Shown one piece after another: positions 17,221 to 64,000 of a stretch of 64,000 nucleotides of DNA. Below the pieces are notes generated by a model. The model was not told where the DNA came from, made no database searches, and worked only from the letters and a program-made list of their open reading frames with translations. How positions within the stretch are numbered: the stretch's first letter is position 1; each line of letters begins with the position of its first letter. The stretch is from Escherichia coli (GTDB lineage Bacteria > Pseudomonadota > Gammaproteobacteria > Enterobacterales > Enterobacteriaceae): NCBI RefSeq assembly GCF_009931435.1, contig NZ_CP043414.1. One strand, given 5' to 3'. A program made the position numbers and the translations under genes.

Positions 17221-17282
17221 AAGTCATCCTTTTATCGTAATTGGCAACTCACAACATTTCATTAAACTACTTCACCATAATA

Positions 17283-17747: not shown

Positions 17748-17845
17748 CTACAACATTCATCCTTATAATAAGACTTTCAAGTCTATAAAAACCATATATC
17801 CTTGCACAAGCTTATTAGCTATTCATATTTGCATATCTCATAAAC

Positions 17846-18205: not shown

Positions 18206-18256
18206 AAAAACCTCCCTTGCTTAATATTATAAATATTTTTAAATATATGTGGCATT

Positions 18257-43525: not shown

Positions 43526-44479
43526 ATGAAGCATGAATTATCAAGTATGAAGGCATTTGTCATACTGGCAGAGTCCAGTTCATTTAACAATGCTGCTAAA
43601 TTACTCAATATTACGCAACCTGCATTAACGCGAAGAATAAAAAAAATGGAAGAGGATTTACATATTCAACTATTTGAGCGTACAACTCGCAAGGTTATGT
43701 TAACAAAAGCAGGAAAAAGGTTGCTCCCGGAGGCGCGGGAATTAATAAAGAAATTCGATGAAACGCTTTTTAATATTCGTGATATGAATGCTTATCATCG
43801 TGGTATGGTGACGTTAGCGTGTATTCCGACCGCAGTATTTTATTTTTTACCACTGGCAATCGGTAAATTTAATGAGCTGTATCCCAATATTAAAGTGCGG
43901 ATTCTGGAACAAGGCACGAATAATTGCATGGAATCGGTGCTGTGTAACGAATCAGACTTTGGCATAAACATGAACAACGTCACAAATTCATCCATTGATT
44001 TTACCCCACTGGTCAACGAGCCGTTTGTGCTGGCCTGTCGGCGTGACCATCCATTGGCCAAAAAGCAGCTTGTAGAATGGCAGGAGTTAGTAGGTTACAA
44101 AATGATTGGCGTACGCTCCTCCAGCGGCAACCGACTTTTGATAGAACAACAGCTGGCCGACAAGCCCTGGAAGCTGGACTGGTTTTACGAAGTGCGTCAT
44201 CTTTCGACGTCATTAGGACTGGTGGAGGCGGGACTGGGGATTTCGGCGCTTCCTGGTCTGGCAATGCCCCATGCACCCTATTCTTCGATTATTGGTATCC
44301 CGCTGGTGGAACCGGTTATACGTCGGACATTGGGGATTATTCGCCGCAAAGATGCCGTGCTTTCTCCGGCAGCAGAACGCTTTTTTGCCTTGCTGATTAA
44401 TTTGTGGACTGACGATAAAGACAACTTGTGGACCAATATCGTCGAACGCCAAAGACATGCGTTACAGGAAATGGGGTAA
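43526..44479 (+). CDS. ybhD: LysR-family transcriptional regulator YbhD
   Basis: 317 aa from MKHELSSMKAFVILAESSSFNNAAKLLNITQPALTRRIKKME (HTH); divergent from ybhH. Confidence 0.85.
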   Translation: MKHELSSMKAFVILAESSSFNNAAKLLNITQPALTRRIKKMEEDLHIQLFERTTRKVMLTKAGKRLLPEARELIKKFDETLFNIRDMNAYHRGMVTLACIPTAVFYFLPLAIGKFNELYPNIKVRILEQGTNNCMESVLCNESDFGINMNNVTNSSIDFTPLVNEPFVLACRRDHPLAKKQLVEWQELVGYKMIGVRSSSGNRLLIEQQLADKPWKLDWFYEVRHLSTSLGLVEAGLGISALPGLAMPHAPYSSIIGIPLVEPVIRRTLGIIRRKDAVLSPAAERFFALLINLWTDDKDNLWTNIVERQRHALQEMG

Positions 44480-44519
44480 TACTCCGGCGCAGGAGATACT
44501 GCGCCGGGTGAATCAGCGG

Positions 44520-45551
<1,032 letters not shown>

Positions 45552-45669
45552 CTAAAATTAGTCGCTTTTGGCGGTGAATGCTGAATTAAAACGCAGAATT
45601 TTGTCCGATAGTGGTATCGGTGTACCATTCGCGCAGACGAAAATTCTTAACCTTAATCTGGAATACGCC

Positions 45670-46488
45670 ATGACCACACGCGTGATTGCACTCGACTTAG
45701 ACGGCACCTTATTGACCCCGAAAAAAACCTTGCTTCCTTCATCGATAGAAGCCCTGGCCCGCGCTCGCGAAGCAGGTTATCAATTAATCATCGTCACGGG
45801 CCGCCATCACGTCGCTATTCATCCTTTTTATCAGGCGCTGGCGCTGGATACACCTGCTATTTGCTGTAATGGCACCTATTTGTATGATTATCATGCAAAA
45901 ACAGTGCTTGAAGCCGATCCAATGCCCGTTAATAAAGCCCTGCAACTCATTGAGATGCTGAATGAACACCACATTCACGGTCTGATGTATGTGGATGATG
46001 CAATGGTCTATGAGCACCCGACCGGGCATGTCATTCGCACGTCTAACTGGGCGCAAACCCTGCCGCCGGAACAGCGTCCGACCTTTACCCAGGTTGCTTC
46101 ACTGGCCGAGACAGCGCAGGAAGTTAACGCAGTATGGAAGTTCGCCCTGACACACGATGACCTGCCGCAATTGCAGCATTTTGGTAAGCATGTTGAACAT
46201 GAATTGGGACTGGAGTGTGAATGGTCCTGGCACGATCAGGTTGATATTGCCCGCGGTGGTAACAGCAAAGGTAAACGCCTGACGAAATGGGTTGAGGCGC
46301 AAGGCTGGTCGATGGAAAACGTTGTCGCATTCGGCGATAATTTTAATGATATCAGTATGCTGGAAGCCGCTGGTACAGGCGTGGCGATGGGCAACGCTGA
46401 TGACGCAGTAAAAGCGCGCGCCAACATTGTGATTGGTGATAACACCACCGACAGCATTGCCCAGTTCATTTATAACCACCTGATTTAA
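45670..46488 (+). CDS. ybhA: HAD-family sugar/pyridoxal phosphatase YbhA
   Basis: 272 aa from MTTRVIALDLDGTLL (HAD motif I). The track ORF is extended upstream. Confidence 0.9.
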   Translation: MTTRVIALDLDGTLLTPKKTLLPSSIEALARAREAGYQLIIVTGRHHVAIHPFYQALALDTPAICCNGTYLYDYHAKTVLEADPMPVNKALQLIEMLNEHHIHGLMYVDDAMVYEHPTGHVIRTSNWAQTLPPEQRPTFTQVASLAETAQEVNAVWKFALTHDDLPQLQHFGKHVEHELGLECEWSWHDQVDIARGGNSKGKRLTKWVEAQGWSMENVVAFGDNFNDISMLEAAGTGVAMGNADDAVKARANIVIGDNTTDSIAQFIYNHLI

Positions 46489-47547
46489 TCAGGCGGTTAT
46501 CGAGACACTTTTAATTTGCGCGTATAGCCACAGGCCAGGTTTGATCGCCAGTTCATCCCTGGCCCACGGGCTTATTCGCGCCCACAGCGTTTTACCGCCG
46601 ACTTCCAGTTCCACTTCCACCTGGCCGTTGTCGTCATAACTATTAACAACTTTTGCCCGCAATACGTTACGAATGCTGGTTTGCTGCGGCGGTTGTAAAA
46701 CCAGCGAGACATCGGAAGCCTGAATGCGGATGCGTAGCGCAGCTTGCAGCGGTTCGTCCAGCTTATTGACCCACAAATGCTGATCGCCCAGCGCCAGTGC
46801 GGTCATCGCGTAATGCGGATGATGTTCCAGTACCGTTACTTTCAGAATGCTGCTTTGTTGCTCTTTCGGCAACCATGGATTCATCACGCTACTGCCCCAG
46901 ACGTCTTCCAGCGCACCGAACGCTTTCACCTGGCCGTTTTCCAGTACCATCACTCGGTCTGCCAGATGGAGGATCTCATCCAGTGAATGACTGACATAGA
47001 GCATCGGAATGTTGATTTCCCGCGTCAACCGTTGCAGATAAGGCAATAGCTCGCGTTTTCGCGGAAGATCCAATGATGCCAGCGGTTCATCCAGTAACAG
47101 CAATTCCGGTGCTGTCAGCAAAGCCCGACCAATCGCCACACGCTGTTTTTCGCCTCCGGACAGGCTGCCCGGTAAACGGTCAAGCAACGGTTCAATGCCT
47201 AAAAGCGCCACCAGCTTATCGAACTGATCGACCATGCTTTTCGCCATGCCGTAGCGCAGATTTCCACGTACTTTGTAATGCGGAAACAGCCGCGCATCCT
47301 GAAACACATAACCAACGCGACGCTTTTCTGGCGAAAGGCAGATCCTTTTTTCGGCGTCATTTAGTACCCGACCATTGAGGACAATCCGCCCTTTTTGTGG
47401 ACGTGTCAGCCCACTGATGGCATTAATCAGCGAGGTTTTTCCGGCACCAGAGACGCCAAAGATAGCAGTGATACCATTGGCGGGCAGCGTTTCATTAATG
47501 GTCAGGCAATGGTTGCCCAACGTCTGGGAAAAATTCAGTTCCAACAT
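46489..47547 (-). CDS. modC: Molybdate ABC transporter ATPase ModC
   Basis: 352 aa with Walker A (GVSGAGKTS). Confidence 0.95.
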
Positions 47548-47549
47548 GA

Positions 47550-48239
47550 TTAGCGCCCCGCCCGTTCACGGCTGATTCTGGCCAGCCATTCTGAAATCAA
47601 CAGGGAGATCATCGCCAGCGCAATAGAGATAATGCACAGTCTCGCCGCACCACTTTCCCCGCCGGGGGTCTGGATCAGGGTATACATGGCTGAAGGAATG
47701 GTTCGCGTTTCGCCAGGAATGTTAGAAACAAAGGTGATCGTTGCCCCAAACTCACCAAGCGAACGAGCGAATGCCAGTACCGTACCGACGATAATTCCCG
47801 GTAAGGTCAGCGGTAACGTGATAGTAAAGAACACGCGCCAGCGCCCTGCCCCCAATGTTCTTGCGGCCTGTTCCAGTTTGACATCAACCCCTTCCAGCGC
47901 CAGACGAATTGCCCGCACCATCAACGGAAACGACATCACGGCGGCAGCGAGAACCGCACCACGCCAGCTAAAGGCGAAGGTAATGCCAAACCAGTCATAC
48001 AGACGTTCACCGATAAATCCGCGCCGTCCCATCGAAACTAATAACAAGTAACCGACGACCACGGGCGGTAACACCAGCGGTAGATGCAGTACGCTATCGA
48101 GCAGAGCTTTGCCCGGAAATGTGCAACGCACCAGTAACCAGGCAAAAAAGATCCCAAACGGCAGGCTAAACAGCACAGCCAGGGAAGAAACTTTCAGGCT
48201 TAATAAAACCGCCTGCCATTCTGGATCGGTCAGTATCAT
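47550..48239 (-). CDS. modB: Molybdate ABC transporter permease ModB
   Basis: 229-aa polytopic membrane protein; operon position. Confidence 0.95.
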
Positions 48240-49012
48240 TACTTGGTTGTAAATCCGTAGCGTTTAAAAATTTCCGCAGCCTGCGGTCCCTTCAGATAAT
48301 CATAAAATGCTTTTACTGTCGCATTGTTATGTCCTTCCACAACAGCAACCGGATATTCCACTTTTTTATGTGAATCTTCCGGGAAGGTGGCAACCACTTT
48401 TACCCCTTTGCTGGCAACTGCGTCAGAACCGTAAACAATGCCCAGCGGCGCTTCATTGCGTTCGACCAACGCCAGCGCGCCACGAACATCTTCCGCCGGA
48501 GCCAGTTTCGGGGAGAGCGTATCCCATGCGCCCAGTTTTTGCAGTGCTTCTTTTGCATAAATGCCAGCGGGAACATGTTCCGGATCACCAACCGCCAGGC
48601 GACCGCCATTCAGCAGCGAAGTCCAGTTGGTTTTGCTGTCAATGGAGAAATCTTTCTGCTCGCTGGCTTTCGGTGCTACAACAACCAGGCTATTACCGAG
48701 TAGAGTCTGACGCGAAGCTGTATCGATCGCTTTTTTATTAACTGCATAATCCATCCATTTCTGATCGGCAGAGATAAACAGATCCGCAGGCGCTCCCGCT
48801 TCAATCTGACGGGCGAGAGTAGATGACGAAGCGAAAGAAGAAACCACATCCACGTCTTTCTCTTTTTTATACTGCGTAGCAATGTCCTGCATTGCGTTAG
48901 TCAGTGATGCGGCGGCGAATACCGTGATTTTCCCTTCATCTGCCAGTGCATTGCCAGCAGCAGCGAAAGAGAGTGCCGCCCCGGCAAACAAGTTCAACCA
49001 TTTACGAGCCAT
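48239..49012 (-). CDS. modA: Molybdate-binding periplasmic protein ModA
   Basis: 257 aa with signal peptide; operon position. Confidence 0.95.
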   Translation of the reverse strand: MARKWLNLFAGAALSFAAAGNALADEGKITVFAAASLTNAMQDIATQYKKEKDVDVVSSFASSSTLARQIEAGAPADLFISADQKWMDYAVNKKAIDTASRQTLLGNSLVVVAPKASEQKDFSIDSKTNWTSLLNGGRLAVGDPEHVPAGIYAKEALQKLGAWDTLSPKLAPAEDVRGALALVERNEAPLGIVYGSDAVASKGVKVVATFPEDSHKKVEYPVAVVEGHNNATVKAFYDYLKGPQAAEIFKRYGFTTK

Positions 49013-49030
49013 TGGTAACCCCTTAATGTG

Positions 49031-49055
49031 ACGTTATGTAGGCGACAATATAACG
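49031..49055. promoter_or_regulatory. ModE operator at the modA promoter
   Basis: acgttatgtaggcgacaatataacg, an inverted repeat immediately upstream of modA. Confidence 0.7.
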
Positions 49056-49140
49056 GCAAGTTCAGAATTTTCCCAGCAGTTATTGCTAACCTTTGTGAGG
49101 TTGATGAAAAAAATATCGGCAGGAAAAGCAGGAAGTTGAG

Positions 49141-49169
49141 AAAAAGAAAATGCCCGACTAAGCGGGCAT
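49141..49169 (-). terminator. Rho-independent terminator downstream of acrZ
   Basis: Hairpin tgcccg-actaa-gcgggca; on the minus strand it is followed by attttctttttc. Confidence 0.6.
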
Positions 49170-49177
49170 TCAGAGAA

Positions 49178-49345
<168 letters not shown>

Positions 49346-49455
49346 TCATGAGACTATTCTAACCGCTAAGCACAGAAAAGCACTCCCCTTTTGTGCGGTC
49401 AGCTTTGCGTGGCGTTCGTTTTCCGTCACAATAAGACTTTTGCCAGGACATTGTT

Positions 49456-50244
49456 ATGCAGGCCGAAATCCTTCTCACCCTTAAGCTCCAACAAAAATTA
49501 TTCGCCGACCCGCGCCGCATTTCGTTACTAAAACACATTGCGCTTTCCGGTTCCATTAGCCAGGGAGCGAAAGATGCCGGTATCAGCTATAAAAGCGCCT
49601 GGGATGCCATTAACGAGATGAATCAGTTAAGTGAGCATATTCTGGTTGAGCGCGCAACAGGCGGTAAAGGTGGCGGCGGCGCAGTACTGACCCGCTATGG
49701 TCAGCGACTGATTCAGCTCTATGATTTACTGGCGCAAATCCAGCAAAAAGCCTTTGATGTGTTAAGTGACGATGACGCCTTGCCGCTGAACAGCCTGCTG
49801 GCCGCGATCTCACGTTTTTCACTGCAGACCAGTGCCCGTAACCAGTGGTTTGGCACCATCACCGCCCGCGATCATGATGACATTCAACAACATGTTGATG
49901 TCTTACTGGCCGATGGCAAAACACGCCTTAAAGTCGCGATTACCGCACAAAGTGGCGCACGTCTGGGACTGGATGAAGGCAAAGAAGTGTTGATTCTGCT
50001 GAAAGCGCCGTGGGTGAACATTACTCAGGATGACACTGTCGCCCAGGGTGCCGACAACCAATTGCCGGGCATTATTCGTCATATAGAGCGCGGTGCAGAA
50101 CAGTGCGAAGTATTAATGGCGTTACCTGACGGGCAAACTCTGTGCGCCACGGTGCCGATAAATGAAGCAGCTTCTCTTGAACAAGGGCAGAATGCCACGG
50201 CTTACTTTAACGCCGACAGCGTGATTATCGCTACGCTTTGCTAA
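49456..50244 (+). CDS. modE: Molybdate-responsive transcriptional regulator ModE
   Basis: 262-aa ORF, divergent from modABC. Confidence 0.95.
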   Translation: MQAEILLTLKLQQKLFADPRRISLLKHIALSGSISQGAKDAGISYKSAWDAINEMNQLSEHILVERATGGKGGGGAVLTRYGQRLIQLYDLLAQIQQKAFDVLSDDDALPLNSLLAAISRFSLQTSARNQWFGTITARDHDDIQQHVDVLLADGKTRLKVAITAQSGARLGLDEGKEVLILLKAPWVNITQDDTVAQGADNQLPGIIRHIERGAEQCEVLMALPDGQTLCATVPINEAASLEQGQNATAYFNADSVIIATLC

Positions 50245-50311
50245 GCGTGTTGACAATTTGTTATGAAACACGTATCCCTGTCAGTAATCGCTGCAAAAAA
50301 TGGGATATAAA

Positions 50312-51784
50312 ATGTCATCGTTGCAAATTTTGCAAGGCACGTTTCGTCTTAGCGACACAAAAACGCTGCAATTGTCTCAGCTAACGTTAAACGCGGGTGA
50401 TAGTTGGGCGTTTGTCGGTTCGAATGGAAGCGGGAAGTCGGCGCTGGCCCGCGCGCTGGCGGGGGAACTTCCGTTTTTGAAAGGTGAACGACAAAGTCAG
50501 TTTTCCCACATCACTCGTCTCTCCTTCGAGCAATTGCAAAAGCTCGTCAGCGACGAATGGCAACGGAATAACACCGATATGCTCGGCCCTGGCGAAGATG
50601 ACACCGGACGCACTACGGCTGAAATCATTCAGGATGAAATTAAGGATGCACAGCGTTGTGCGCAGTTGGCGCAGCAGTTCGGCATTACCGCCCTTCTCGA
50701 CCGACGCTTTAAATACCTTTCCACTGGCGAGACGCGAAAAACCCTGCTGTGTCAGGCGCTGATGTCGGAGCCAGACTTGTTGATTCTTGATGAGCCGTTC
50801 GATGGCCTGGATGTTGCCTCACGTCAGCAGCTGGCTGAGCGACTCGCCTCGTTACATCAGTCCGGTATTACCCTGGTACTGGTGCTCAATCGCTTCGATG
50901 AGATCCCGGAATTTGTCCAGTTTGCTGGCGTGCTGGCGGATTGCACGTTAGCGGAAACTGGTGCTAAAGAGGAACTGCTGCAACAGGCACTTGTCGCGCA
51001 ACTGGCGCATAGCGAGCGGCTAGAAGGTGTACAACTGCCGGAGCCGGATGTACCTTCAGCACGTCACGCCTTACCCGCCAACGAACCGCGCATTGTGCTG
51101 AACAATGGCGTGGTTTCTTATAACGATCGCCCCATTCTTAATAACCTTAGCTGGCAGGTGAATCCAGGCGAACACTGGCAAATTGTCGGGCCAAATGGCG
51201 CGGGAAAATCGACGCTATTAAGCCTGATTACAGGCGATCATCCGCAAGGTTACAGCAACGATTTAACACTTTTCGGCCGACGTCGCGGCAGCGGCGAAAC
51301 CATCTGGGACATCAAAAAGCATATCGGTTACGTCAGCAGTAGTTTGCATCTGGATTACCGGGTCAGCACTACCGTGCGTAATGTGATCCTTTCTGGCTAT
51401 TTTGATTCGATTGGCATTTATCAGGCCGTTTCAGATCGCCAGCAAAAACTGGTGCAGCAGTGGCTGGATATTCTCGGCATTGATAAACGCACGGCTGACG
51501 CGCCTTACCATAGTCTTTCCTGGGGACAGCAACGTCTGGCGCTGATCGTCCGCGCGCTGGTGAAACATCCGACGTTGCTTATTCTCGATGAACCACTACA
51601 GGGGCTTGATCCGCTCAATCGCCAGCTTATCCGCCGGTTTGTTGATGTGCTGATTAGCGAAGGTGAAACGCAATTGTTGTTTGTTTCGCACCACGCCGAA
51701 GATGCGCCTGCCTGTATTACCCATCGTCTTGAGTTCGTGCCGGACGGTGAACTCTATCGCTATGTGCTGACAAAAATAAACTGA
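50312..51784 (+). CDS. modF: ABC-type ATPase ModF (two ABC domains)
   Basis: 490 aa from MSSLQILQGTFRL; two Walker A motifs (GSNGSGKS, GPNGAGKST). Confidence 0.9.
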   Translation: MSSLQILQGTFRLSDTKTLQLSQLTLNAGDSWAFVGSNGSGKSALARALAGELPFLKGERQSQFSHITRLSFEQLQKLVSDEWQRNNTDMLGPGEDDTGRTTAEIIQDEIKDAQRCAQLAQQFGITALLDRRFKYLSTGETRKTLLCQALMSEPDLLILDEPFDGLDVASRQQLAERLASLHQSGITLVLVLNRFDEIPEFVQFAGVLADCTLAETGAKEELLQQALVAQLAHSERLEGVQLPEPDVPSARHALPANEPRIVLNNGVVSYNDRPILNNLSWQVNPGEHWQIVGPNGAGKSTLLSLITGDHPQGYSNDLTLFGRRRGSGETIWDIKKHIGYVSSSLHLDYRVSTTVRNVILSGYFDSIGIYQAVSDRQQKLVQQWLDILGIDKRTADAPYHSLSWGQQRLALIVRALVKHPTLLILDEPLQGLDPLNRQLIRRFVDVLISEGETQLLFVSHHAEDAPACITHRLEFVPDGELYRYVLTKIN

Positions 51785-51802
51785 GTCGGTAATGCTGACT
51801 GT

Positions 51803-51850
51803 ACCGGAGGCGGCCTAAGCGCCCTCTCCGGCCTACAGTTCGACGCATCC
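51803..51850. repeat. REP-like palindromic element after modF
   Basis: ccggaggcggcctaagcgccctctccggcctacagttcgacgcatcc. Confidence 0.5.
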
Positions 51851-51952
51851 AGGCATGAAACCGCGTCTTTTTTTTCAGATAAAAAGCGCAATCATTCATA
51901 AAGCCGCTGTTTTATAATCACTTAATCGCGCATAAAAAACGGCTAAATTCTT

Positions 51953-51995
51953 GTGTAAACGATTCCACTAATTTATTCCATGTCACACTTTTCGC
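51953..51995 (+). promoter_or_regulatory. gal promoter region: external operator galOE and CRP site / P1-P2 core
   Basis: gtgtaaacgattccac (galOE) followed by tttattccatgtcacacttttcgcatctttgttatgctatggttatttcatacc. The internal operator gtggtagcggttacat lies at about 52066-52081 inside galE. Confidence 0.85.
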
Positions 51996-52046
51996 ATCTT
52001 TGTTATGCTATGGTTATTTCATACCATAAGCCTAATGGAGCGAATT

Positions 52047-53063
52047 ATGAGAGTTCTGGTTACCGGTGGTAGCGGTTACATTGGAAGTCATACCTGTGTG
52101 CAATTACTGCAAAACGGTCATGATGTCATCATTCTTGATAACCTCTGTAACAGTAAGCGCAGCGTACTGCCTGTTATCGAGCGTTTAGGCGGCAAACATC
52201 CAACGTTTGTTGAAGGCGATATCCGTAACGAAGCGTTGATGACCGAGATCCTGCACGATCACGCTATCGACACCGTGATCCACTTCGCCGGGCTAAAAGC
52301 CGTTGGCGAATCGGTACAAAAACCGCTGGAATATTACGACAACAATGTCAACGGCACCCTGCGCCTGATTAGCGCCATGCGCGCCGCTAACGTCAAAAAC
52401 TTTATTTTTAGCTCCTCCGCCACCGTTTATGGCGATCAGCCCAAAATTCCATATGTTGAAAGCTTCCCGACCGGCACACCGCAAAGCCCTTACGGCAAAA
52501 GCAAGCTGATGGTGGAACAGATCCTCACCGATCTGCAAAAAGCCCAGCCGGACTGGAGCATTGCCCTGCTGCGCTATTTCAACCCGGTTGGCGCGCATCC
52601 GTCGGGCGATATGGGCGAAGATCCGCAAGGTATTCCGAATAACCTGATGCCATACATCGCCCAGGTTGCTGTAGGCCGTCGCGACTCGCTGGCGATTTTT
52701 GGTAACGATTATCCGACCGAAGACGGTACTGGCGTGCGCGATTACATCCACGTAATGGATCTGGCGGACGGTCACGTCGTGGCGATGGAAAAACTGGCGA
52801 ACAAGCCAGGCGTACACATCTACAACCTCGGCGCTGGCGTGGGCAGCAGCGTGCTGGACGTGGTTAATGCCTTCAGCAAAGCCTGCGGCAAACCGGTTAA
52901 TTATCATTTTGCACCGCGTCGCGAGGGCGACCTTCCGGCCTACTGGGCGGACGCCAGCAAAGCCGACCGTGAACTGAACTGGCGCGTAACGCGCACACTC
53001 GATGAAATGGCGCAGGACACCTGGCACTGGCAGTCACGCCATCCACAGGGATATCCCGATTAA
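52047..53063 (+). CDS. galE: UDP-glucose 4-epimerase GalE
   Basis: 338 aa from MRVLVTGGSGYIGSH (Rossmann motif). The track ORF is extended upstream. Confidence 0.95.
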   Translation: MRVLVTGGSGYIGSHTCVQLLQNGHDVIILDNLCNSKRSVLPVIERLGGKHPTFVEGDIRNEALMTEILHDHAIDTVIHFAGLKAVGESVQKPLEYYDNNVNGTLRLISAMRAANVKNFIFSSSATVYGDQPKIPYVESFPTGTPQSPYGKSKLMVEQILTDLQKAQPDWSIALLRYFNPVGAHPSGDMGEDPQGIPNNLMPYIAQVAVGRRDSLAIFGNDYPTEDGTGVRDYIHVMDLADGHVVAMEKLANKPGVHIYNLGAGVGSSVLDVVNAFSKACGKPVNYHFAPRREGDLPAYWADASKADRELNWRVTRTLDEMAQDTWHWQSRHPQGYPD

Positions 53064-53072
53064 GGAACGACC

Positions 53073-54119
53073 ATGACGCAATTTAATCCCGTTGATCATC
53101 CACATCGCCGCTACAACCCGCTCACCGGGCAATGGATTCTGGTTTCACCGCACCGCGCTAAGCGCCCCTGGCAGGGGGCGCAGGAAACGCCAGCCAAACA
53201 GGTGTTACCTGCGCACGATCCAGATTGCTTCCTCTGCGCAGGTAATGTGCGGGTGACAGGCGATAAAAACCCCGATTACACCGGGACTTACGTTTTCACT
53301 AATGACTTTGCGGCCTTGATGTCTGACACGCCAGATGCGCCAGAAAGCAACGATCCTTTGATGCGTTGTCAGAGCGCGCGCGGTACCAGCCGGGTGATCT
53401 GCTTTTCACCGGATCACAGTAAAACGCTGCCAGAACTGAGCGTTGCGGCATTGACGGAAATCGTCAAAACCTGGCAGGAGCAAACCGCAGAACTGGGGAA
53501 AACATACCCGTGGGTGCAGGTCTTTGAAAACAAAGGCGCGGCGATGGGCTGCTCTAACCCGCATCCGCACGGACAGATTTGGGCAAATAGCTTCCTGCCT
53601 AACGAAGCTGAGCGCGAAGACCGCCTGCAAAAAGAATATTTCGCCGGGCAGAAATCACCAATGCTGGTGGATTATGTTCAGCGCGAGCTGGCAGACGGTA
53701 GCCGTACCGTTGTCGAAACCGAACACTGGTTAGCCGTTGTGCCTTACTGGGCTGCCTGGCCGTTCGAAACGCTACTGCTGCCCAAAGCCCACGTTTTGCG
53801 GATCACCGATTTGACCGACGCCCAGCGCAGCGATTTGGCGCTGGCGTTGAAAAAGCTGACCAGTCGTTATGACAACCTCTTCCAGTGCTCCTTCCCCTAC
53901 TCTATGGGCTGGCACGGCGCGCCATTTAATGGCGAAGAGAATCAACACTGGCAGCTGCACGCGCACTTTTATCCGCCTCTGTTACGCTCCGCCACCGTAC
54001 GTAAATTTATGGTTGGTTATGAAATGCTGGCAGAGACCCAGCGAGACCTGACCGCAGAACAGGCAGCAGAGCGTTTGCGCGCAGTCAGCGATATCCATTT
54101 TCGCGAATCCGGAGTGTAA
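53073..54119 (+). CDS. galT: Galactose-1-phosphate uridylyltransferase GalT
   Basis: 348 aa with the HPH active-site motif (CSNPHPHGQ). Confidence 0.95.
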
Positions 54120-54122
54120 GAA

Positions 54123-55271
54123 ATGAGTCTGAAAGAAAAAACACAATCTCTGTTTGCCAACGCATTTGGCTACCCTGCCACTCACACCATTCAGGCGCCT
54201 GGCCGCGTGAATTTGATTGGTGAACACACCGACTACAACGACGGTTTCGTTCTGCCCTGCGCGATTGATTATCAAACCGTGATCAGTTGTGCACCACGCG
54301 ATGACCGTAAAGTTCGCGTGATGGCAGCCGATTATGAAAATCAGCTTGACGAGTTTTCCCTTGATGCGCCTATTGTCGCACATGAAAACTATCAATGGGC
54401 TAACTACGTCCGTGGCGTAGTGAAACATCTGCAACTGCGTAACAACAACTTTGGCGGTGTGGACATGGTGATCAGCGGCAATGTGCCGCAGGGTGCAGGG
54501 TTAAGTTCTTCCGCTTCACTGGAAGTCGCGGTCGGAACCGTATTGCAGCAACTTTATCATCTGCCGCTGGACGGCGCACAAATCGCACTTAACGGCCAGG
54601 AAGCAGAAAACCAGTTTGTTGGCTGTAACTGTGGGATCATGGATCAGCTGATTTCCGCGCTCGGCAAAAAAGATCATGCCTTGCTGATCGATTGCCGCTC
54701 ACTGGGCACCAAAGCGGTTTCCATGCCGAAAGGTGTGGCTGTCGTCATCATCAACAGTAACTTCAAACGTACCCTGGTTGGCAGCGAATACAACACCCGT
54801 CGTGAACAGTGCGAAACCGGCGCGCGTTTCTTCCAGCAGCCAGCCCTGCGCGATGTCACTATTGAGGAGTTCAACGCTGTTGCACATGAACTGGACCCGA
54901 TCGTGGCGAAACGCGTGCGTCATATCCTGACTGAAAACGCCCGTACCGTTGAAGCAGCCAGCGCACTGGAGCAAGGCGACCTGAAACGTATGGGCGAGTT
55001 GATGGCGGAGTCTCATGCTTCTATGCGCGATGATTTCGAAATCACCGTGCCGCAAATTGACACTCTGGTAGAAATCGTCAAAGCTGTGATTGGCGACAAA
55101 GGTGGCGTACGCATGACTGGCGGCGGATTTGGCGGCTGTATCGTCGCACTGATCCCGGAAGAGCTGGTGCCTGCCGTACAGCAGGCTGTCGCTGAACAAT
55201 ATGAAGCAAAAACAGGTATTAAAGAGACTTTTTACGTTTGTAAACCATCACAAGGAGCAGGACAGTGCTGA
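54123..55271 (+). CDS. galK: Galactokinase GalK
   Basis: 382 aa; GHMP kinase motif ([12 protein letters not shown]). Confidence 0.95.
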
Positions 55272-56305
55272 ACGAAACTCCCGCACTGGCACCCGATGGT
55301 CAGCCGTACCGACTGTTAACTTTGCGGAACAACGCAGGGATGGTAGTCACGCTGATGGACTGGGGTGCGACTTTACTTTCCGCCCGTATTCCGCTTTCCG
55401 ATGGCAGCGTCCGCGAGGCGCTGCTTGGCTGCGCCAGCCCGGAATGCTATCAGGATCAGGCCGCGTTTCTGGGGGCCTCTATTGGTCGTTATGCCAACCG
55501 CATCGCCAATAGCCGTTATACCTTTGACGGTGAAACCGTGACGCTTTCGCCAAGTCAGGGCGTTAACCAGCTGCACGGCGGCCCGGAAGGGTTCGACAAA
55601 CGTCGCTGGCAGATTGTAAATCAGAACGATCGTCAGGTGCTATTTGCCCTGAGTTCAGAAGACGGCGATCAAGGCTTTCCGGGGAATCTCGGCGCGACAG
55701 TGCAGTATCGTCTGACCGACGATAACCGTATCTCCATTACTTATCGCGCCACAGTTGATAAACCTTGCCCGGTGAATATGACTAATCACGTCTATTTCAA
55801 CCTCGACGGCGAGCAGTCTGACGTGCGCAATCACAAGTTGCAGATTCTGGCGGACGAATATCTGCCGGTTGATGAAGCCGGTATTCCGCACGACGGTCTG
55901 AAATCTGTCGCCGGAACATCTTTTGATTTCCGCAGCGCCAAAATCATCGCCAGTGAGTTTCTTGCCGACGACGAACAGCGCAAAGTGAAAGGTTACGATC
56001 ATGCGTTCTTGTTACAGGCCAAAGGCGATGGCAAGAAAGTGGCGGCGCATGTCTGGTCAGCAGATGAAAAATTGCAGCTGAAGGTCTACACCACCGCTCC
56101 GGCTCTGCAATTCTACTCCGGCAACTTCCTCGGCGGCACACCGTCGCGGGGAACCGAACCTTACGCCGACTGGCAAGGGCTGGCGTTGGAAAGCGAGTTT
56201 CTGCCGGACAGCCCGAACCACCCTGAATGGCCGCAACCGGACTGTTTCCTGCGTCCTGGCGAAGAGTATTCCAGCCTGACGGAATATCAGTTTATTGCTG
56301 AGTAA
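55265..56305 (+). CDS. galM: Galactose mutarotase (aldose 1-epimerase) GalM
   Basis: 346-aa ORF; operon position. Confidence 0.95.
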
Positions 56306-56309
56306 TGTT

Positions 56310-56330
56310 AAGCCCTCGTCATGAGGGCTT
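56310..56330 (+). terminator. Hairpin after galM (weak U-tract)
   Basis: aagccctc-gtcat-gagggctt followed by tatcctc. Confidence 0.4.
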
Positions 56331-56507
56331 TATCCTCATATTGTTCAAATCACCAGCAAACACCGACATATTTGCAACTCAATATTCACAACAACCTTAC
56401 ACTGCGACACTATTTTCGCTATGGTTATGCGTAAGCATTGCTGTTGCTTCGTCACGGCAATATAATGAGAATTATTATCATTAAAAGATGATTTGAGGAG
56501 TAAGTAT

Positions 56508-57260
56508 ATGGCTGTAACTAAGCTGGTTCTGGTTCGTCATGGCGAAAGTCAGTGGAACAAAGAAAACCGTTTCACCGGTTGGTACGACGTGGATCTGTCT
56601 GAGAAAGGCGTAAGCGAAGCAAAAGCAGCTGGTAAGCTGCTGAAAGAGGAAGGTTACAGCTTTGATTTTGCTTACACCTCTGTGCTGAAACGCGCTATCC
56701 ATACCCTGTGGAATGTGCTGGACGAACTGGATCAGGCATGGCTGCCCGTTGAGAAATCCTGGAAACTGAACGAACGTCACTACGGTGCGTTGCAGGGTCT
56801 GAACAAAGCGGAAACTGCTGAAAAGTATGGCGACGAGCAGGTGAAACAGTGGCGTCGTGGTTTTGCGGTAACTCCGCCGGAACTGACTAAAGATGATGAG
56901 CGTTATCCGGGCCACGATCCACGTTACGCGAAGCTGAGCGAGAAAGAGCTGCCACTGACGGAAAGCCTGGCGCTGACCATTGACCGCGTGATCCCTTACT
57001 GGAATGAAACTATTCTGCCGCGAATGAAGAGCGGTGAGCGCGTGATCATCGCCGCACACGGTAACTCGTTACGTGCGCTGGTGAAATATCTCGATAATAT
57101 GAGCGAAGAAGAGATTCTTGAGCTGAATATCCCGACTGGCGTGCCACTGGTTTATGAATTCGACGAGAATTTCAAACCGCTGAAACGCTATTATCTGGGT
57201 AATGCTGACGAGATCGCGGCGAAAGCAGCGGCCGTTGCTAACCAGGGTAAAGCGAAGTAA
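56508..57260 (+). CDS. gpmA: 2,3-bisphosphoglycerate-dependent phosphoglycerate mutase GpmA
   Basis: 250 aa from [17 protein letters not shown] (RHGE catalytic motif). Confidence 0.95.
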
Positions 57261-57283
57261 ACGTCATTCGCTTAAAAATGAGA

Positions 57284-57313
57284 AAGCCGACTGCAAGTGA
57301 GTCGGCTTTTTTG
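57284..57313 (+). terminator. Rho-independent terminator after gpmA
   Basis: agccgac-tgcaagtga-gtcggct followed by tttttt. Confidence 0.7.
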
Positions 57314-57334
57314 TTGCTAACAATGGAGCACATT

Positions 57335-57370
57335 GCCTGATGCGACGCTGCGCGTCTTATCAGGCCTACG
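57335..57370. repeat. REP element between gpmA and aroG
   Basis: gcctgatgcgacgctgcgcgtcttatcaggcctacg. Confidence 0.6.
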
Positions 57371-57417
57371 GTGATTCATCGGATAACCACTGTGACGGCG
57401 CATCCGACAATTAAACT

Positions 57418-58470
57418 TTACCCGCGACGCGCTTTTACTGCATTCGCCAGTTGACGTAACAGAGCATCGGTATCTTCCCAGCCAATGCAGGCATCGGTGA
57501 TGCTCTTGCCATAGGCCAGCGGTTCCCCACTCTCGAGGCTCTGATTGCCTTCCACCAGATGGCTTTCCACCATCACGCCAATAATGGCCTTTTCGCCACC
57601 GGCAATCTGCTGGCAAACGTCAGCACAAACATCCATCTGCTTTTTGAATTGTTTCGACGAGTTAGCATGGCTGAAATCGATCATCACCTGTGCTGGCAGG
57701 CCTGCTTTGTTCAGCCCTTCTTTCACTTCAGCAACGTGCTTCGCGCTGTAGTTAGGCTCTTTACCACCGCGCAGAATGATATGGCAATCGCCGTTACCGC
57801 TGGTATTCACAATCGCCGAATGCCCCCATTTCGTTACGGACAGGAAGCAGTGCGGCGCACCGGCGGCATTAATGGCATCGATAGCCACTTTAATCGTACC
57901 GTCGGTGCCATTTTTGAAGCCGACCGGACAAGAAAGACCAGACGCCAGTTCGCGGTGCACCTGCGATTCCGTAGTACGTGCGCCAATTGCCCCCCAACTC
58001 ATCAGGTCCGCGAGATATTGTGGGGTGATCATATCGAGAAATTCACCCGCTGCTGGCAAACCGCTGTCGTTAATATCAAGCAGCAATTTACGGGCAATAC
58101 GCAGACCGTCGTTGATCTGGAAGCTGTTATCCATATGCGGATCGTTAATCAGCCCTTTCCAGCCCACCGTGGTACGCGGCTTTTCAAAATAGACGCGCAT
58201 CACGATTTCCAGCTCATCTTGCAGCTCTTCACGCAGCGCCAGCAAGCGAGTGGCATACTCTTTAGCCGCGACGGGATCATGAATAGAACACGGACCAATC
58301 ACCACCAACAGGCGATCATCATTACCTTTCAGGATCTTATGGATCGCTTTTCGGGCATGGGCAACCGTATTCGCGGCATTTTCAGTAGCAGGGAATTTTT
58401 CCAGCAATGCGACAGGAGGAAGTAACTCTTTGATTTCTTTGATTCGTAAATCGTCGTTCTGATAATTCAT
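57418..58470 (-). CDS. aroG: Phe-sensitive DAHP synthase AroG
   Basis: 350 aa starting MNYQNDDLRIKEIKELLPP. Confidence 0.95.
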   Translation of the reverse strand: MNYQNDDLRIKEIKELLPPVALLEKFPATENAANTVAHARKAIHKILKGNDDRLLVVIGPCSIHDPVAAKEYATRLLALREELQDELEIVMRVYFEKPRTTVGWKGLINDPHMDNSFQINDGLRIARKLLLDINDSGLPAAGEFLDMITPQYLADLMSWGAIGARTTESQVHRELASGLSCPVGFKNGTDGTIKVAIDAINAAGAPHCFLSVTKWGHSAIVNTSGNGDCHIILRGGKEPNYSAKHVAEVKEGLNKAGLPAQVMIDFSHANSSKQFKKQMDVCADVCQQIAGGEKAIIGVMVESHLVEGNQSLESGEPLAYGKSITDACIGWEDTDALLRQLANAVKARRG

Positions 58471-58785
58471 GTCTGTTCCAGTGTTGCCATACTTATCTTA
58501 GTGAATGCAATACTTCCAATCTATATCTTCCGTCAGAATGTGTAAACGGGGTTTTACACTATGAACGGATTAATCCTGGAATTAGCAAGAAAAACGCCAG
58601 ATTGTCGCGAAAAACGAGATCTCTCCTACAATTTCTAACTGTAACTCCTTTGTTTGTTAATTATTTCAAGATTCTCTGCTGGGTATCTTTGCCTGGCTGA
58701 AATCTTAAACCATTGCCTTATATTCACCTGCAAATGCACTGTTGGAAGAGGTTATCCGACATAACGACCATAACAGGAGCATCCT

Positions 58786-59109
58786 ATGAAAATGACAAAA
58801 CTGGCCACACTATTTTTGACTGCCACTCTAAGCCTTGCCAGCGGTGCCGCACTGGCTGCCGATAGCGGAGCGCAAAGCAATAACGGCCAAGCAAACGCCG
58901 CAGCTGATGCGGGCCAGGTAGCCCCTGATGCCCGTGAAAATGTCGCGCCAAATAACGTCGACAATAACGGGGTAAATACCGGTTCTGGCGGCACAATGCT
59001 GCATCCGGATGGTTCTTCAATGAACAATGACGGCATGACCAAAGATGAAGAGCACAAGAACACCATGTGCAAAGATGGTCGCTGCCCGGATATCAATAAA
59101 AAAGTCTAA
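58786..59109 (+). CDS. ybgS: Secreted Gly/Asn-rich protein YbgS, apparently shortened (107 codons, with 18 further in-frame codons after the TAA)
   Basis: Signal peptide [24 protein letters not shown]. After the stop at 59107-59109 the frame continues TGDGINNDVDTKTDGTTQ to a second stop at about 59164-59166; I remember K-12 YbgS as 126 aa. Confidence 0.7.
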
Positions 59110-59279
59110 ACCGGTGATGGCATCAACAATGATGTCGATACCAAAACCGACGGTACCACGCAGTAAGCCTGCGAAATAGCCAATAATGGGAGAGCGGAGT
59201 CTCTCCCTTTTAATTTTTCCCTTCTAAAAGCAGTATGATGTCATAAAGTTAAGTGAGAATAATTAAGGGATGACTCGTC

Positions 59280-60221
59280 ATGGCGCACTCACACTCACAC
59301 ACTTCCTCACACCTGCCAGAAGATAATAATGCTCGTCGCTTGTTGTATGCTTTCGGCGTGACTGCCGGGTTTATGCTCGTAGAAGTCATTGGTGGTTTTC
59401 TTTCCGGTTCTCTGGCATTGCTGGCCGATGCGGGTCATATGTTGACCGATACTGCCGCCCTGCTTTTCGCCCTACTCGCAGTGCAATTCTCCCGTCGTCC
59501 TCCCACCATTCGCCACACTTTCGGTTGGCTAAGATTGACCACGCTCGCGGCGTTTGTGAATGCCATCGCCCTGGTGGTGATTACTATTTTGATTGTCTGG
59601 GAGGCGATAGAACGCTTCCGCACGCCGCGTCCGGTCGAGGGCGACATGATGATGGCAATTGCCGTGGCTGGGCTACTGGCAAATATACTTTCTTTCTGGT
59701 TACTTCATCACGGCAGCGAAGAGAAAAACCTCAACGTGCGCGCAGCGGCACTGCATGTCCTCGGGGACCTTCTGGGTTCGGTTGGAGCTATTATTGCCGC
59801 GTTGATTATTATCTGGACCGGCTGGACACCTGCTGACCCCATTCTCTCAATACTGGTGTCGCTTCTGGTTCTGCGTAGCGCGTGGCGACTGTTGAAAGAT
59901 AGCGTGAATGAATTACTTGAAGGTGCACCGGTATCGCTGGATATCGCCGAACTGAAGCGTCGTATGTGCCGGGAAATCCCGGAAGTCCGCAATGTGCACC
60001 ATGTGCATGTTTGGATGGTGGGTGAAAAGCCAGTGATGACACTGCATGTACAGGTGATCCCGCCACACGATCACGACGCGTTGTTGGATCAGATCCAACA
60101 TTATCTGATGGATCACTATCAGATTGCACACGCCACCATCCAGATGGAATATCAACCTTGTCATGGGCCAGACTGCCACCTGAATGAAGGGGTGTCTGGC
60201 CATTCACATCATCATCATTAA
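59280..60221 (+). CDS. zitB: Zinc efflux transporter ZitB (cation diffusion facilitator)
   Basis: 313 aa with His-rich N- and C-termini and CDF membrane domain. Confidence 0.9.
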
Positions 60222-60937
60222 TGGGACAGCGCGCGTGAACCTCTTTCGCGTGCGCTGTTGATCCACATCCGGCTGCCGTTGAGGGCAATAAAGGTCAGGA
60301 TGATGTACTCCAGAGACATGGCGTAAACGCCCTGAAGTGCAAAAATAACGACGCTAATCACGTTAATAATCACCCACAATAGCCAGTTTTCCACATACTT
60401 ACGCGTCATCAGAATCATTGCCACGATAGATAACACCATCATGCAGGAATCCCAGAACGGGAAAGCGTCCGGTTGCAGTTCAGGCATCGCAACCTGTAAT
60501 CCTAATGCTTGCATGATCATGACTGCCACGCGGGTCAAAAATGCAAACACCGGATTGATAAATACCGTCATCAGACCAACCGAAACAACGCAAACCGCCA
60601 ACCAGCTGAGCGCCTTCGGCAATGGCAACCAGCGAATTTTCAACTCCGCCTCGTTCTGACTGGTTTGTCGCGACCACGCATACCAACCGTAAATATTCGC
60701 GGCAAAGAAAAACACCTGTAATAGCAGGCTGGCATACAGCTGAATCTGAAAGAAAATAATGCCAAACAAGGTGACGTTGATCAGGCCAAAGAAGTAGTTG
60801 CTGATCTTCTCCAGACTGGCAAGGCCAATACACAGCAACCCGGCGATCGTGCCTACCGCTTCGATCCATGAGAGATCATAACCGCCTGCTCCTATTGGTA
60901 TATGTACCAGGATATTCTGCACACTAAAAAAATCCAT
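60218..60937 (-). CDS. pnuC: Nicotinamide riboside transporter PnuC
   Basis: 239-aa polytopic membrane protein, downstream of nadA on the same strand. Confidence 0.9.
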
Positions 60938-60974
60938 CTTTCCCCCAAAGCGTAACGTGACGCCTTATTATTAG

Positions 60975-62018
60975 TTATCCACGTAGTGTAGCCGCAAAAT
61001 CCAGCATACGATTGAGCGGCACCAGCGCCTTCTCTCGCAGCTTTTCCTCAACATGAACCTCGTGATTGCTTCCTTCCTGTTCTAATGCCTCTGCGATGGC
61101 CTGAAGGCCATTCATGGCCATCCACGGACAATGCGCGCAGCTGCGGCAGGTTGCGCCCTCACCCGCGGTTGGTGCTTCCAGTAACTCTTTATCTGGCACC
61201 GCCTGCTGCATTTTGTAGAAAATACCCCGATCGGTTGCCACGATAAGTCGCTGATGTGGCAATGTTTTCGCAGCAGCGATCAGTTGACTGGTGGAACCGA
61301 CCGCATCCGCCATATCTACAATAGCTTGCGGTGATTCTGGATGCACCAGTATGGCAGCATCCGGGTATTGTTTTTGCAAGCGGGTTAACGCCTGAGTCTT
61401 AAATTCATCATGCACAATGCAGGCACCCTGCCAGCATAAAATGTCTGCGCCCGTCTGTTTTTGCACGTAACGCCCCAGATGTTTGTCGGGTGCCCAGATG
61501 ATTTTTTCACCCAAACTATCCAGATGATCAATAAGTTCGACGGCAATGCTTGAAGTTACCACCCAATCTGCCCGCGCTTTTACCGCAGCAGAAGTGTTGG
61601 CGTAGACGACGACAGTATGATCGGGATGGGCATCGCAAAATGCGTTAAATTCTTCAACAGGGCAGCCGAGATCCAGTGAACATTCAGCCTGAAGTGTCGG
61701 CATCAGAATTGTTTTTTCCGGACTGAGAATTTTGGCGGTTTCTCCCATAAATCTCACCCCAGCGACTAACAACGTAGAAGCGGGATGCTTTGCACCGAAG
61801 CGCGCCATTTCCAGAGAATCAGAAATACAGCCACCGGTTTCTTCTGCCAGTTGTTGAATTTCGGGATCGGTATAGTAGTGGGCAACCATCACCGCATTAC
61901 GTTCTTTTAGCAGACGTTTTATCTTCTCGCGGTAATACGCTTTTTCATCAATGCTTAACGGCGTCGGCTTCGGGGGGAAAGGATAAATCGCCGCTTCAGG
62001 ATCAAACATCACGCTCAT
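60975..62018 (-). CDS. nadA: Quinolinate synthase NadA
   Basis: 347-aa ORF recognised as NadA. Confidence 0.95.
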
Positions 62019-62090
62019 CTTACCATCTCGTTTTACAGGCTTAACATTAAAACCGACATAAGCGTGATATTCGCTATTATCGGCATAATT

Positions 62091-62108
62091 TGTTTTATAT
62101 GCTAAACA
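62091..62108. promoter_or_regulatory. NadR (NAD box)-like operator upstream of nadA
   Basis: tgttttatatgctaaaca, a TGTTTA...TAAACA-type inverted repeat about 75 bp upstream of the nadA start. Confidence 0.5.
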
Positions 62109-62420
62109 AGATAGTCGAATGGTGGGGAAAAGTCACTCGAAATACGTATGAGATGACGAATGCCACACTTTGCGTCTTATTCCTCCGACGTAGAGTCGTT
62201 TACGCAGCAAGCGCGGAGTATGTCATCAGGGTCAAGAATTGAAATTGAGAGATGCCTGAATAGCAAAAAAGCGCCTTTAGGGCGCTTTTTTACATTGGTG
62301 GGTCGTGCAGGATGACTCACTTCGCTCGCCCTTCGGGCCGTCGCCGCAAGCGGCTCCGTTGTTTCGCTGCGCTCTACTCGAACCTGCAGCAGGTTCGAAT
62401 CTTTGAATATCGCAGATAGC

Positions 62421-62447
62421 AAAAAAGCGCCTTTAGGGCGCTTTTTT
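62421..62447 (-). terminator. Terminator hairpin immediately after the last tRNA-Lys (a second copy lies at about 62265-62291)
   Basis: aaaaaagcgcc-ttta-gggcgctttttt, a symmetric hairpin flanked by A/T runs on both sides. Confidence 0.6.
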
Positions 62448-62451
62448 ACAT

Positions 62452-62527
62452 TGGTGGGTCGTGCAGGATTCGAACCTGCGACCAATTGATTAAAAGTCAA
62501 CTGCTCTACCAACTGAGCTAACGACCC
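62452..62527 (-). tRNA. lysQ: tRNA-Lys (anticodon UUU)
   Basis: Reverse complement is a 76-nt tRNA-Lys including CCA: gggtcgttagctcagttggtagagcagttgacttttaatcaattggtcgcaggttcgaatcctgcacgacccacca. Confidence 0.9.
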
Positions 62528-62659
62528 CTTGCGGGATTATGCTGCTTTAATCATTCAGGATGGTGGGTCGTGCAGGATGACTCGACTTCGTCTCGCCCTT
62601 CGGGCCGTTGCTGACGCAACGTTATCCTTCACATTCTCTACCAGTAACCACCTTTAAAT

Positions 62660-62735
62660 TGGTGGGTCGTGCAGGATTCGAACCTGCGACCAATTGATTA
62701 AAAGTCAACTGCTCTACCAACTGAGCTAACGACCC
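62660..62735 (-). tRNA. lysZ: tRNA-Lys (anticodon UUU)
   Basis: Identical 76-nt tRNA-Lys sequence on the minus strand. Confidence 0.9.
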
Positions 62736-62881
62736 ATACGGGTGTTACCTGAATGATTTCTACTCGGGACCAATCTTTAATATTGGTGGATCGTGCAGGA
62801 TGACTCGCTTCGCTCGCCCTACGGGCCGTTGCTGGCGCAACGTTATCCTTCACGCTTAACATCTGAGTTTGATGTTAAAAC

Positions 62882-62957
62882 TGGTGGGTCGTGCAGGATT
62901 CGAACCTGCGACCAATTGATTAAAAGTCAACTGCTCTACCAACTGAGCTAACGACCC
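62882..62957 (-). tRNA. lysY: tRNA-Lys (anticodon UUU)
   Basis: Identical 76-nt tRNA-Lys sequence on the minus strand. Confidence 0.9.
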
Positions 62958-62960
62958 GAG

Positions 62961-63036
62961 TGGTGGGTGATGACGGGATCGAACCGCCGACCCCCTCCTT
63001 GTAAGGGAGGTGCTCTCCCAGCTGAGCTAATCACCC
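62961..63036 (-). tRNA. valZ: tRNA-Val (anticodon UAC)
   Basis: Reverse complement is a 76-nt tRNA-Val: gggtgattagctcagctgggagagcacctcccttacaaggagggggtcggcggttcgatcccgtcatcacccacca. Confidence 0.9.
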
Positions 63037-63086
63037 GATACTGCGCTGGATACTACAAACTACTTCCACCGAACCCACCGCATTAG

Positions 63087-63162
63087 TGGTGGGTCGTGCA
63101 GGATTCGAACCTGCGACCAATTGATTAAAAGTCAACTGCTCTACCAACTGAGCTAACGACCC
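63087..63162 (-). tRNA. lysW: tRNA-Lys (anticodon UUU)
   Basis: Identical 76-nt tRNA-Lys sequence on the minus strand. Confidence 0.9.
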
Positions 63163-63164
63163 GG

Positions 63165-63240
63165 TGGTGGGTGATGACGGGTTCGAACCGCCGACCCCCT
63201 CCTTGTAAGGGAGGTGCTCTCCCAGCTGAGCTAATCACCC
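63165..63240 (-). tRNA. valT: tRNA-Val (anticodon UAC)
   Basis: 76-nt tRNA-Val differing from the 62961 copy at one T-arm position (ggttcgaac versus ggatcgaac on the plus strand). Confidence 0.9.
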
Positions 63241-63375
63241 GATACTACGCTGGATACTACAACTAACTAGGTTAGTGGTGGGTCGTGCAGGATGACTCGA
63301 CTTCGTCTCGCCCTTCGGGCCGTTGCTGACGCAACGTTATCCTTCACGTTTTACTACCGCTTCCACCTTAGCGAT

Positions 63376-63451
63376 TGGTGGGTCGTGCAGGATTCGAACC
63401 TGCGACCAATTGATTAAAAGTCAACTGCTCTACCAACTGAGCTAACGACCC
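63376..63451 (-). tRNA. lysT: tRNA-Lys (anticodon UUU)
   Basis: Identical 76-nt tRNA-Lys; first gene of the cluster after cpoB. Confidence 0.9.
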
Positions 63452-63615
63452 ACTTTTTCGTTGCTTTCGGTTTGTTTGATATCCCGTGGCAACGGCGGCA
63501 TATATTACTGATTTCAGACTTGAGCGCAACAAAAATTTCGATGTAGATCACTCAACTGCTTATGATTCGCACGACACGACCAGAAATAATGCAACTTCTG
63601 GTCGTGTGTTATGCA

Positions 63616-64000
63616 TTACATCGCGTTCAGACGTTTTTGCGCCTGTTTTGCGCCATCAGTACCAGGGTATTTACTGATAACCTGCTGGTATACGGCTTTC
63701 GCTTTTGCGGTGTCACCTTTGTCCTGCATGATGACGCCGACTTTAAACATCGCATCTGCAGCCTTCGGTGACTTCGGATAGTTTTTCACTACCGAAGCAA
63801 AATAATACGCCGCATCATCTTTTTTACCCTTGTTGTAGTTTAACTGACCCAGCCAATAATTGGCGTTTGGCAGATAAGTTGAATCAGGGTAATTTTTGAT
63901 GAAATTCTGAAATGCCACCATTGCGTCATCCTGGCGGGATTTATCCTGCACCAGCGCAATAGCTGCATTGTAATCCGTGTTTGCATCACCGCTTTTCACC
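63616..64000 (-). CDS. cpoB: Cell division coordinator CpoB (YbgF), C-terminal TPR part only (5-prime end beyond window)
   Basis: ORF reading into the window edge; TPR-like product ending ...QQVISKYPGTDGAKQAQKRLNAM. Confidence 0.85.
   Translation of the reverse strand, partial: VKSGDANTDYNAAIALVQDKSRQDDAMVAFQNFIKNYPDSTYLPNANYWLGQLNYNKGKKDDAAYYFASVVKNYPKSPKAADAMFKVGVIMQDKGDTAKAKAVYQQVISKYPGTDGAKQAQKRLNAM

Follow-up and report, generated by a model that had tools for sequence, protein, structure and literature searches.

The ybgS locus and its surroundings

The DNA analysed here is a 64,000-nucleotide stretch of Escherichia coli contig NZ_CP043414.1 (hereafter the window), in which ybgS lies between aroG and zitB, in the same gene order as in K-12, CFT073 and 2013C-4282. 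The first in-frame stop of the gene is a TAA at 59107-59109, reached after 107 codons ending in ..CPDINKKV; beyond it the frame continues for 18 sense codons, TGDGINNDVDTKTDGTTQ, up to a second TAA at 59164-59166. Both points had been made in an earlier note written from the sequence alone, and both hold in the translation, the first also in the list of open reading frames (ORFs). The elements of the locus are as follows:

58775..58779, plus strand: Shine-Dalgarno sequence AGGAG, 6 nt 5' of the ybgS ATG, read from the sequence and the same in CFT073 and Nissle
58786..59109, plus strand: shortened ybgS coding sequence of 107 codons, closed by the premature TAA, assigned from the ORF list, the PF13985 match and synteny with K-12 b0753
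58786..58857, plus strand: signal-peptide codons (residues 1-24), identical to the E. coli YbgS signal peptide defined by mass spectrometry, with cleavage predicted here
58890, plus strand: lineage marker, synonymous CAA (Gln35) as against CAG in most E. coli, unrelated to the truncation
59068..59085, plus strand: codons of the Cys95..Cys100 (CKDGRC) disulfide loop, kept in the short product, invariant columns in two alignments
59107..59109, plus strand: premature ochre TAA, with the derived base T at 59107 and ancestral CAA (Gln108), from the comparison with sister assemblies
59110..59163, plus strand: 18 orphaned codons TGDGINNDVDTKTDGTTQ, the remnant of the conserved C-terminal tail, now untranslated, with the same DNA as in the sister genomes
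59164..59166, plus strand: ancestral ybgS stop TAA, where the 381-nt genes of K-12, CFT073 and Nissle also end
59167, plus strand: lineage marker, G directly after the ancestral stop, where CFT073 and Nissle have C, unrelated to the truncation
59188..59217, plus strand: putative intrinsic-terminator-like hairpin GGGAGAG-CGGAGT-CTCTCCC followed by a TTTTAATTTT tract, from a terminator scan and a consensus match only

The 107-residue product matches the PF13985 (YbgS) profile at 175.7 bits (cut-off 27, E=5e-52), over profile positions 1-105 of 124. With Gln in place of the stop, the score rises to 207.9 bits and the match spans positions 1-124 of 124, the tail adding 32 bits; the short product falls short of full coverage, with the C-terminal ..KTDGTTQ motif of the family encoded past the premature stop. 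The 24-residue Sec signal peptide and the Cys-x4-Cys pair typical of YbgS proteins are both present in the sequence, and the precursor would be expected to be processed as usual. An open stretch of 18 codons is unremarkable alone, considering that its chance is (61/64)^18, or ~0.42; it appears meaningful through its base-for-base identity with the ancestral tail, and not through its openness. The terminator-like hairpin, a candidate for the native terminator, starts 22 nt 3' of the ancestral stop. Of ~55 K-12 orthologues in the window, ybgS alone contains an internal stop, and we therefore see no general gene decay in this genome.

The surroundings of the gene differ from better-known strains in several respects. 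Immediately downstream, zitB is intact in the window (313 aa), whilst in CFT073 and Nissle 1917 it has lost 549 bp internally (~59297-59846 in window coordinates) and is annotated as a partial pseudogene. Two low-GC (~30%) islands absent from K-12, at 1650-5652 and 23964-28397, each consist of a divergent gene pair that combines a homologue of SopA-like HECT-type E3-ligase effectors with an unannotated ORF of ~550 aa: the former (670 aa, SopA_C, E=4e-14, plus 561 aa) replaces ybiA between dinG and rhlE, and the latter (765 aa, with pentapeptide repeats, SopA central and SopA_C domains, E=2e-20, plus 550 aa) sits between ybhK and uvrB. A third low-GC island at 16642-18604 takes the place of ybhM between ybhN and ybhL; among its four small ORFs, all on the minus strand, are a homologue of SUKH-4 immunity proteins (PF14435) and a DUF3969 protein, and the island looks like an orphan immunity or toxin-associated cassette.

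None of 5,426 complete RefSeq E. coli genomes exceeds ~98.3% identity to positions 44000-64000 over 20 kb, and typical E. coli strains reach 96.5-96.9%. The lineage of the window is absent from this collection (best 20-kb identity ~98%), and look-ups of GalE and ModE returned other lineages only, at 96.5-98.3% identity. The source belongs to an Escherichia lineage that is either deep or little represented, and its ybgS region may be mosaic or recombinant; the ybgS segment is 99.5% identical to the B2-type (CFT073/Nissle) allele, despite the ~98.3% maximum over 20 kb.

A recent C-to-T change at codon 108

CFT073 and Nissle carry the closest ybgS alleles (99.5%) among the 5,426 complete genomes, and the ybgS region of the window differs from theirs by three bases: CAG>CAA at 58890, CAA>TAA at 59107 and C>G at 59167. 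The ribosome-binding site (RBS) and upstream region of ybgS are identical to CFT073. Closer still are two independent sister assemblies, found by exact-protein look-up of the neighbouring ZitB and ModF. GCA_002965045.1 compared with window positions 56280-62347 (6.1 kb), and GCA_009898965.1 compared with 49962-61784 (11,823 nt), each show a sole difference, namely C at 59107, and in both a 126-aa YbgS is called; the markers at 58890 and 59167 are common to this sister lineage. Because assemblies of the same lineage differ at 59107 alone, the stop is derived and results from a very recent C-to-T change, with C as the ancestral base. The CAA-to-TAA nonsense change with loss of 19 C-terminal residues, as put forward in the earlier note, is thereby upheld.

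The wider comparison agrees. In K-12, b0753 (UniProt P0AAV6, PF13985 'YbgS-like') is 381 nt long and encodes 126 aa, the length given for it in the earlier note, with CAA (Gln108) at the position of the premature stop codon. K-12 YbgS shares with the window the aroG-zitB locus, the same 24-residue signal peptide and Cys95-Cys100, as well as 98% identity (2 substitutions) over the retained 107 residues; unlike it, the window protein is without residues 108-126 and its Pfam match ends at profile position 105 of 124. The K-12 tail equals the 18 post-stop residues of the window. Alignment with further strains, which the same note had proposed, gave CAA throughout: K-12, CFT073 and Nissle have it at codon 108, and so do all 24 intact E. 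coli ybgS loci fetched, in which the encoded tail is identical and the tail DNA has only two variable sites, both synonymous.

It is thus very probable that a single spontaneous C-to-T transition at 59107 made codon 108 of ybgS (CAA, Gln) an ochre TAA, in this strain or a small sub-clade. The gene has no further differences from the sister genomes, be they frameshifts, additional stops or lost expression signals, and the codons past the stop have stayed intact owing to the extreme recency of the mutation. As regards its origin, a Dcm hotspot can be set aside: the ancestral context, GTCCAAACCGG, contains no CCWGG site, and 5-methylcytosine deamination is therefore not the cause. A frameshift or slippage at the AAAAAA run just 5' of the stop was likewise rejected, as the tail remains in the zero frame here. 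Elsewhere, a natural ybgS frameshift does occur at the AAAAAA run before codon 107 (130-aa product, cluster P0057, 28 members), and other length variants (clusters P0017 and P0019) carry N-terminal in-frame duplications, of QANAAADAG (135 aa) and AALAADSG (134 aa). The only other differences between the window and GCA_002965045.1 are four clustered SNPs at 62348-62412, in a 65-nt spacer by the tRNA-Lys/Val array, which probably reflect repeat-associated gene conversion, or misassembly at the contig end of GCA_002965045.1.

How far does the T allele extend? The exact 57-mer bearing T was found in none of 5,220 complete RefSeq genomes, comprising 1,150 with B2-type and 4,070 with K-12-type flanks; being an exact-match test, it would let a T genome with a further SNP inside the 57-mer escape, and ~200 of the 5,426 genomes fall outside both flank types. 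A search of JGI metagenomes for a non-C base at 59107 gave no matches, with or without the right flank, and is weak, having no C-allele positive control. The exact 107-aa protein is nonetheless on record under four accessions (NAQ63223.1, QHQ00478.1, QMP79385.1 and QMS25760.1; longest contig 5.2 Mb), and its NCBI name is 'YbgS-like family protein', not pseudogene. Judging from contig sizes and exact protein identity, these four accessions would belong to the lineage of the window and end at the TAA.

An apparent set of 21 contigs carrying the 107-aa protein was discarded: all ten Logan/ENA places listed are contig-end cuts at 59106, without a stop codon. Nor do these partials represent a recurrent polymorphism or structural junction at 59107, since control prefixes give equally many of them, with 31 blocks for a 106-aa control and 70 for a 108-aa control versus 41 for the 107-aa query, their ends being scattered over 59104-59111 in both allele backgrounds. 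As evidence for the 107-aa allele we counted only index blocks with contigs >20 kb, which number four for the 107-aa query versus zero for either control; this matches the four accessions, and genuine internal TAA alleles are therefore indicated. Exact ZitB or ModF traces the lineage as such to about 31-33 blocks, and, compared with four for the 107-aa protein, this confines the T allele to a subset of the lineage.

At the equivalents of 59104-59111, dozens of independent Logan/ENA assemblies end, many as contigs of ~18.35 kb and near-identical length. This suggests that the 3' end of ybgS is a systematic assembly-break zone, which may be due to the boundary of a repeat, to a hotspot of library fragmentation or to a fork from untrimmed adapters.

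The lost tail and predicted termination at the new stop

The lost tail comprises 19 residues, QTGDGINNDVDTKTDGTTQ, is acidic and Thr-rich, and makes up ~15% of the protein. It is conserved: across 31 sequences from three genera (Escherichia, Citrobacter and Pseudocitrobacter), 12 of its 19 positions are at least 90% conserved, versus 59 of 83 in the retained mature part. T109, G110, K120, D122, G123, T124 and Q126 are invariant, as are the Cys95 and Cys100 columns, and position 108 itself is Glu in homologues from other genera. The tail is thus constrained to the same degree as the rest of YbgS. Since it is as conserved as the remainder, the allele most likely deprives a non-essential, sigma-S/Crl-dependent stress protein of part or all of its function, and would hence be an incipient pseudogene.

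What is known of the full-length protein comes largely from two top-down mass spectrometry (MS) studies, in which YbgS is abundant alongside HdeA, HdeB and YahO, is found as mature residues 25-126 (~10.46 kDa) after removal of the 24-residue signal peptide, retains its complete ..TKTDGTTQ C-terminus and has a Cys95-Cys100 disulfide (precursor numbering) inferred from MS/MS (PMC8629258, PMC5594050). The mass that we computed for mature K-12 YbgS, 10,464.9 Da, equals the value tabulated in PMC8629258. By the same token, the window allele is predicted to give a mature protein of 83 aa and 8,497 Da (oxidised), versus 102 aa and 10,459 Da for the sister allele. An AlphaFold2 model of YbgS has a mean pLDDT of 44.6 and a pTM of 0.12, with no confident fold; this is in keeping with a low-complexity and probably disordered protein, and is silent on the role of the tail. 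As for its physiology, ybgS is listed in the regulon of Crl, which assists sigma-S (PMC6469107), it is a hub among genes up-regulated under multiple stresses (PMC9501238), and the protein is present in proteomes of periplasm-derived vesicles (PMC7973035).

We propose that ribosomes stop 19 codons early at the UAA and yield a 107-aa precursor, whose unchanged Sec signal peptide would be cut after Ala24 to release an 83-residue periplasmic protein; this short YbgS would keep the Cys95-Cys100 loop and be without the tail QTGDGINNDVDTKTDGTTQ. The 18 in-frame codons past the stop would then be the undecayed remnant of the old frame. Transcription would still end at the native terminator-like hairpin ~80 nt 3' of the new stop, and because the new stop is only that far from the native terminator, a polar effect on zitB is not expected.

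Could the T at 59107 simply be a sequencing or assembly error, the strain being truly CAA with a normal 126-aa YbgS? A lone-base difference from two sister assemblies has just the look of an isolated base-call error, and none of the complete RefSeq genomes reached contains the exact T-bearing 57-mer. However, systematic errors of current platforms do not typically take the form of a C-to-T substitution away from homopolymers, and the 107-aa product stands under four separate NCBI accessions, chromosome-size contigs among them, and its look-up, unlike those of the 106-aa and 108-aa controls, yields four blocks of contigs >20 kb. With that product recurring in contigs of up to 5.2 Mb, we regard an error as improbable.

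Still harder to credit is a TAA that is programmed or efficiently suppressed, whether by a suppressor tRNA or a leaky context, such that the 126-aa form would be made beside the short form; the earlier note had kept this option, which found no support. It would draw on the 18 codons that lie intact and in frame past the stop, on a tRNA-Lys cluster 3.3 kb downstream as a possible source of ochre suppressors, and on the base after the stop, an A, which Poole et al. are said to have described in 1995 as not the strongest fourth-base context. Indeed, an in-frame stop followed by an open homologous frame, with tRNA-Lys genes, in which supG/supL-type suppressors arise, nearby, is reminiscent of programmed read-through or of ochre suppression (supB/supC/supG/supL). 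This likeness is superficial, however. None of the closest relatives, and no other Escherichia locus examined, has the stop (TAA in 0 of the 24 intact E. coli loci and in 0 sister genomes), which leaves nothing 'programmed' about it, and it is neither of the usual leaky stops, UGA or UAG, but a UAA. Read by both RF1 and RF2, UAA is the stop codon that leaks least and terminates most efficiently in E. coli. Of the seven tRNA genes in the window, five are for Lys(UUU) and two for Val(UAC), all with wild-type anticodons, and none is a tRNA with a UUA anticodon. At the premature stop itself we found no notable structure, no stimulatory element and no Rfam element, the only match being at chance level (17.5 bits versus a gathering score of 75). 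Recency explains the intact downstream frame, considering that there are 0 other differences in 11.8 kb.

Dispensability, selection and significance

Accepting a nonsense mutation, what is its likely fate? Related bacteria withstand the loss of ybgS, which at times is even favoured in them. In E. coli Z1324SEC0014 (NZ_CM135183.1), IS903B interrupts the gene at codon 81, the only clear disruption among the complete RefSeq genomes sampled, and ybgS is therefore dispensable. That strain and ours are alike in an independent natural loss of the YbgS C-terminus; they differ in that the insertion at codon 81 removes the disulfide loop too and is annotated as a pseudogene, whilst the window carries a point mutation that affects the tail only. 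More broadly, the allele resembles strain-specific nonsense polymorphisms and incipient pseudogenes of E. coli in its one-base stop relative to all orthologues, the ancestral sense codon in its sister strains, its lack of further decay and its location in a non-essential gene. Unlike a typical incipient pseudogene, it removes only 15% of the protein, and some residual function is possible.

An alternative that is compatible with the nonsense-mutation explanation is that the change is real and positively selected, either because shortening or inactivating an abundant sigma-S-dependent YbgS aids the sub-clade, or because the 83-residue form functions differently. Experimental evolution in Salmonella lends this some appeal: ybgS mutations recurred across evolved lines at frequencies of at least 45%, and delta-ybgS raised the competitive fitness of plasmid carriers, namely those with an IncHI2 plasmid (PMC9599605). 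The allele, moreover, is present in several deposited genomes and has thus persisted for some time, and the mutation leaves the promoter, RBS, signal peptide and disulfide loop as they were. On the other hand, of 5,426 complete genomes 5,424 have an intact ybgS, and its tail does not vary, a pattern that indicates purifying selection in nature; one occurrence in one lineage offers no signal of convergence, and the JGI metagenomes, searched as above with no positive control, returned no T allele. We therefore consider positive selection unlikely, although it is the least implausible of the alternatives weighed here.

To conclude, an ordinary nonsense mutation has shortened a known gene, and the resulting truncated allele is already present, with annotation, in public databases. 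Its significance is mainly annotational: the strain makes at most a YbgS without the conserved 19 C-terminal residues, the intact downstream frame is a sign of recency and not of recoding, and a fitting annotation would be a truncated ybgS allele derived from CAA. The predicted shift of the MALDI or top-down marker peak, normally a prominent one, from ~10.46 to ~8.50 kDa could act as a strain marker. For the study of YbgS, the allele stands as a natural tail deletion, ready for use; and should the truncation prove to be selected, it would parallel the Salmonella ybgS mutants and provide a natural separation-of-function allele of this protein.
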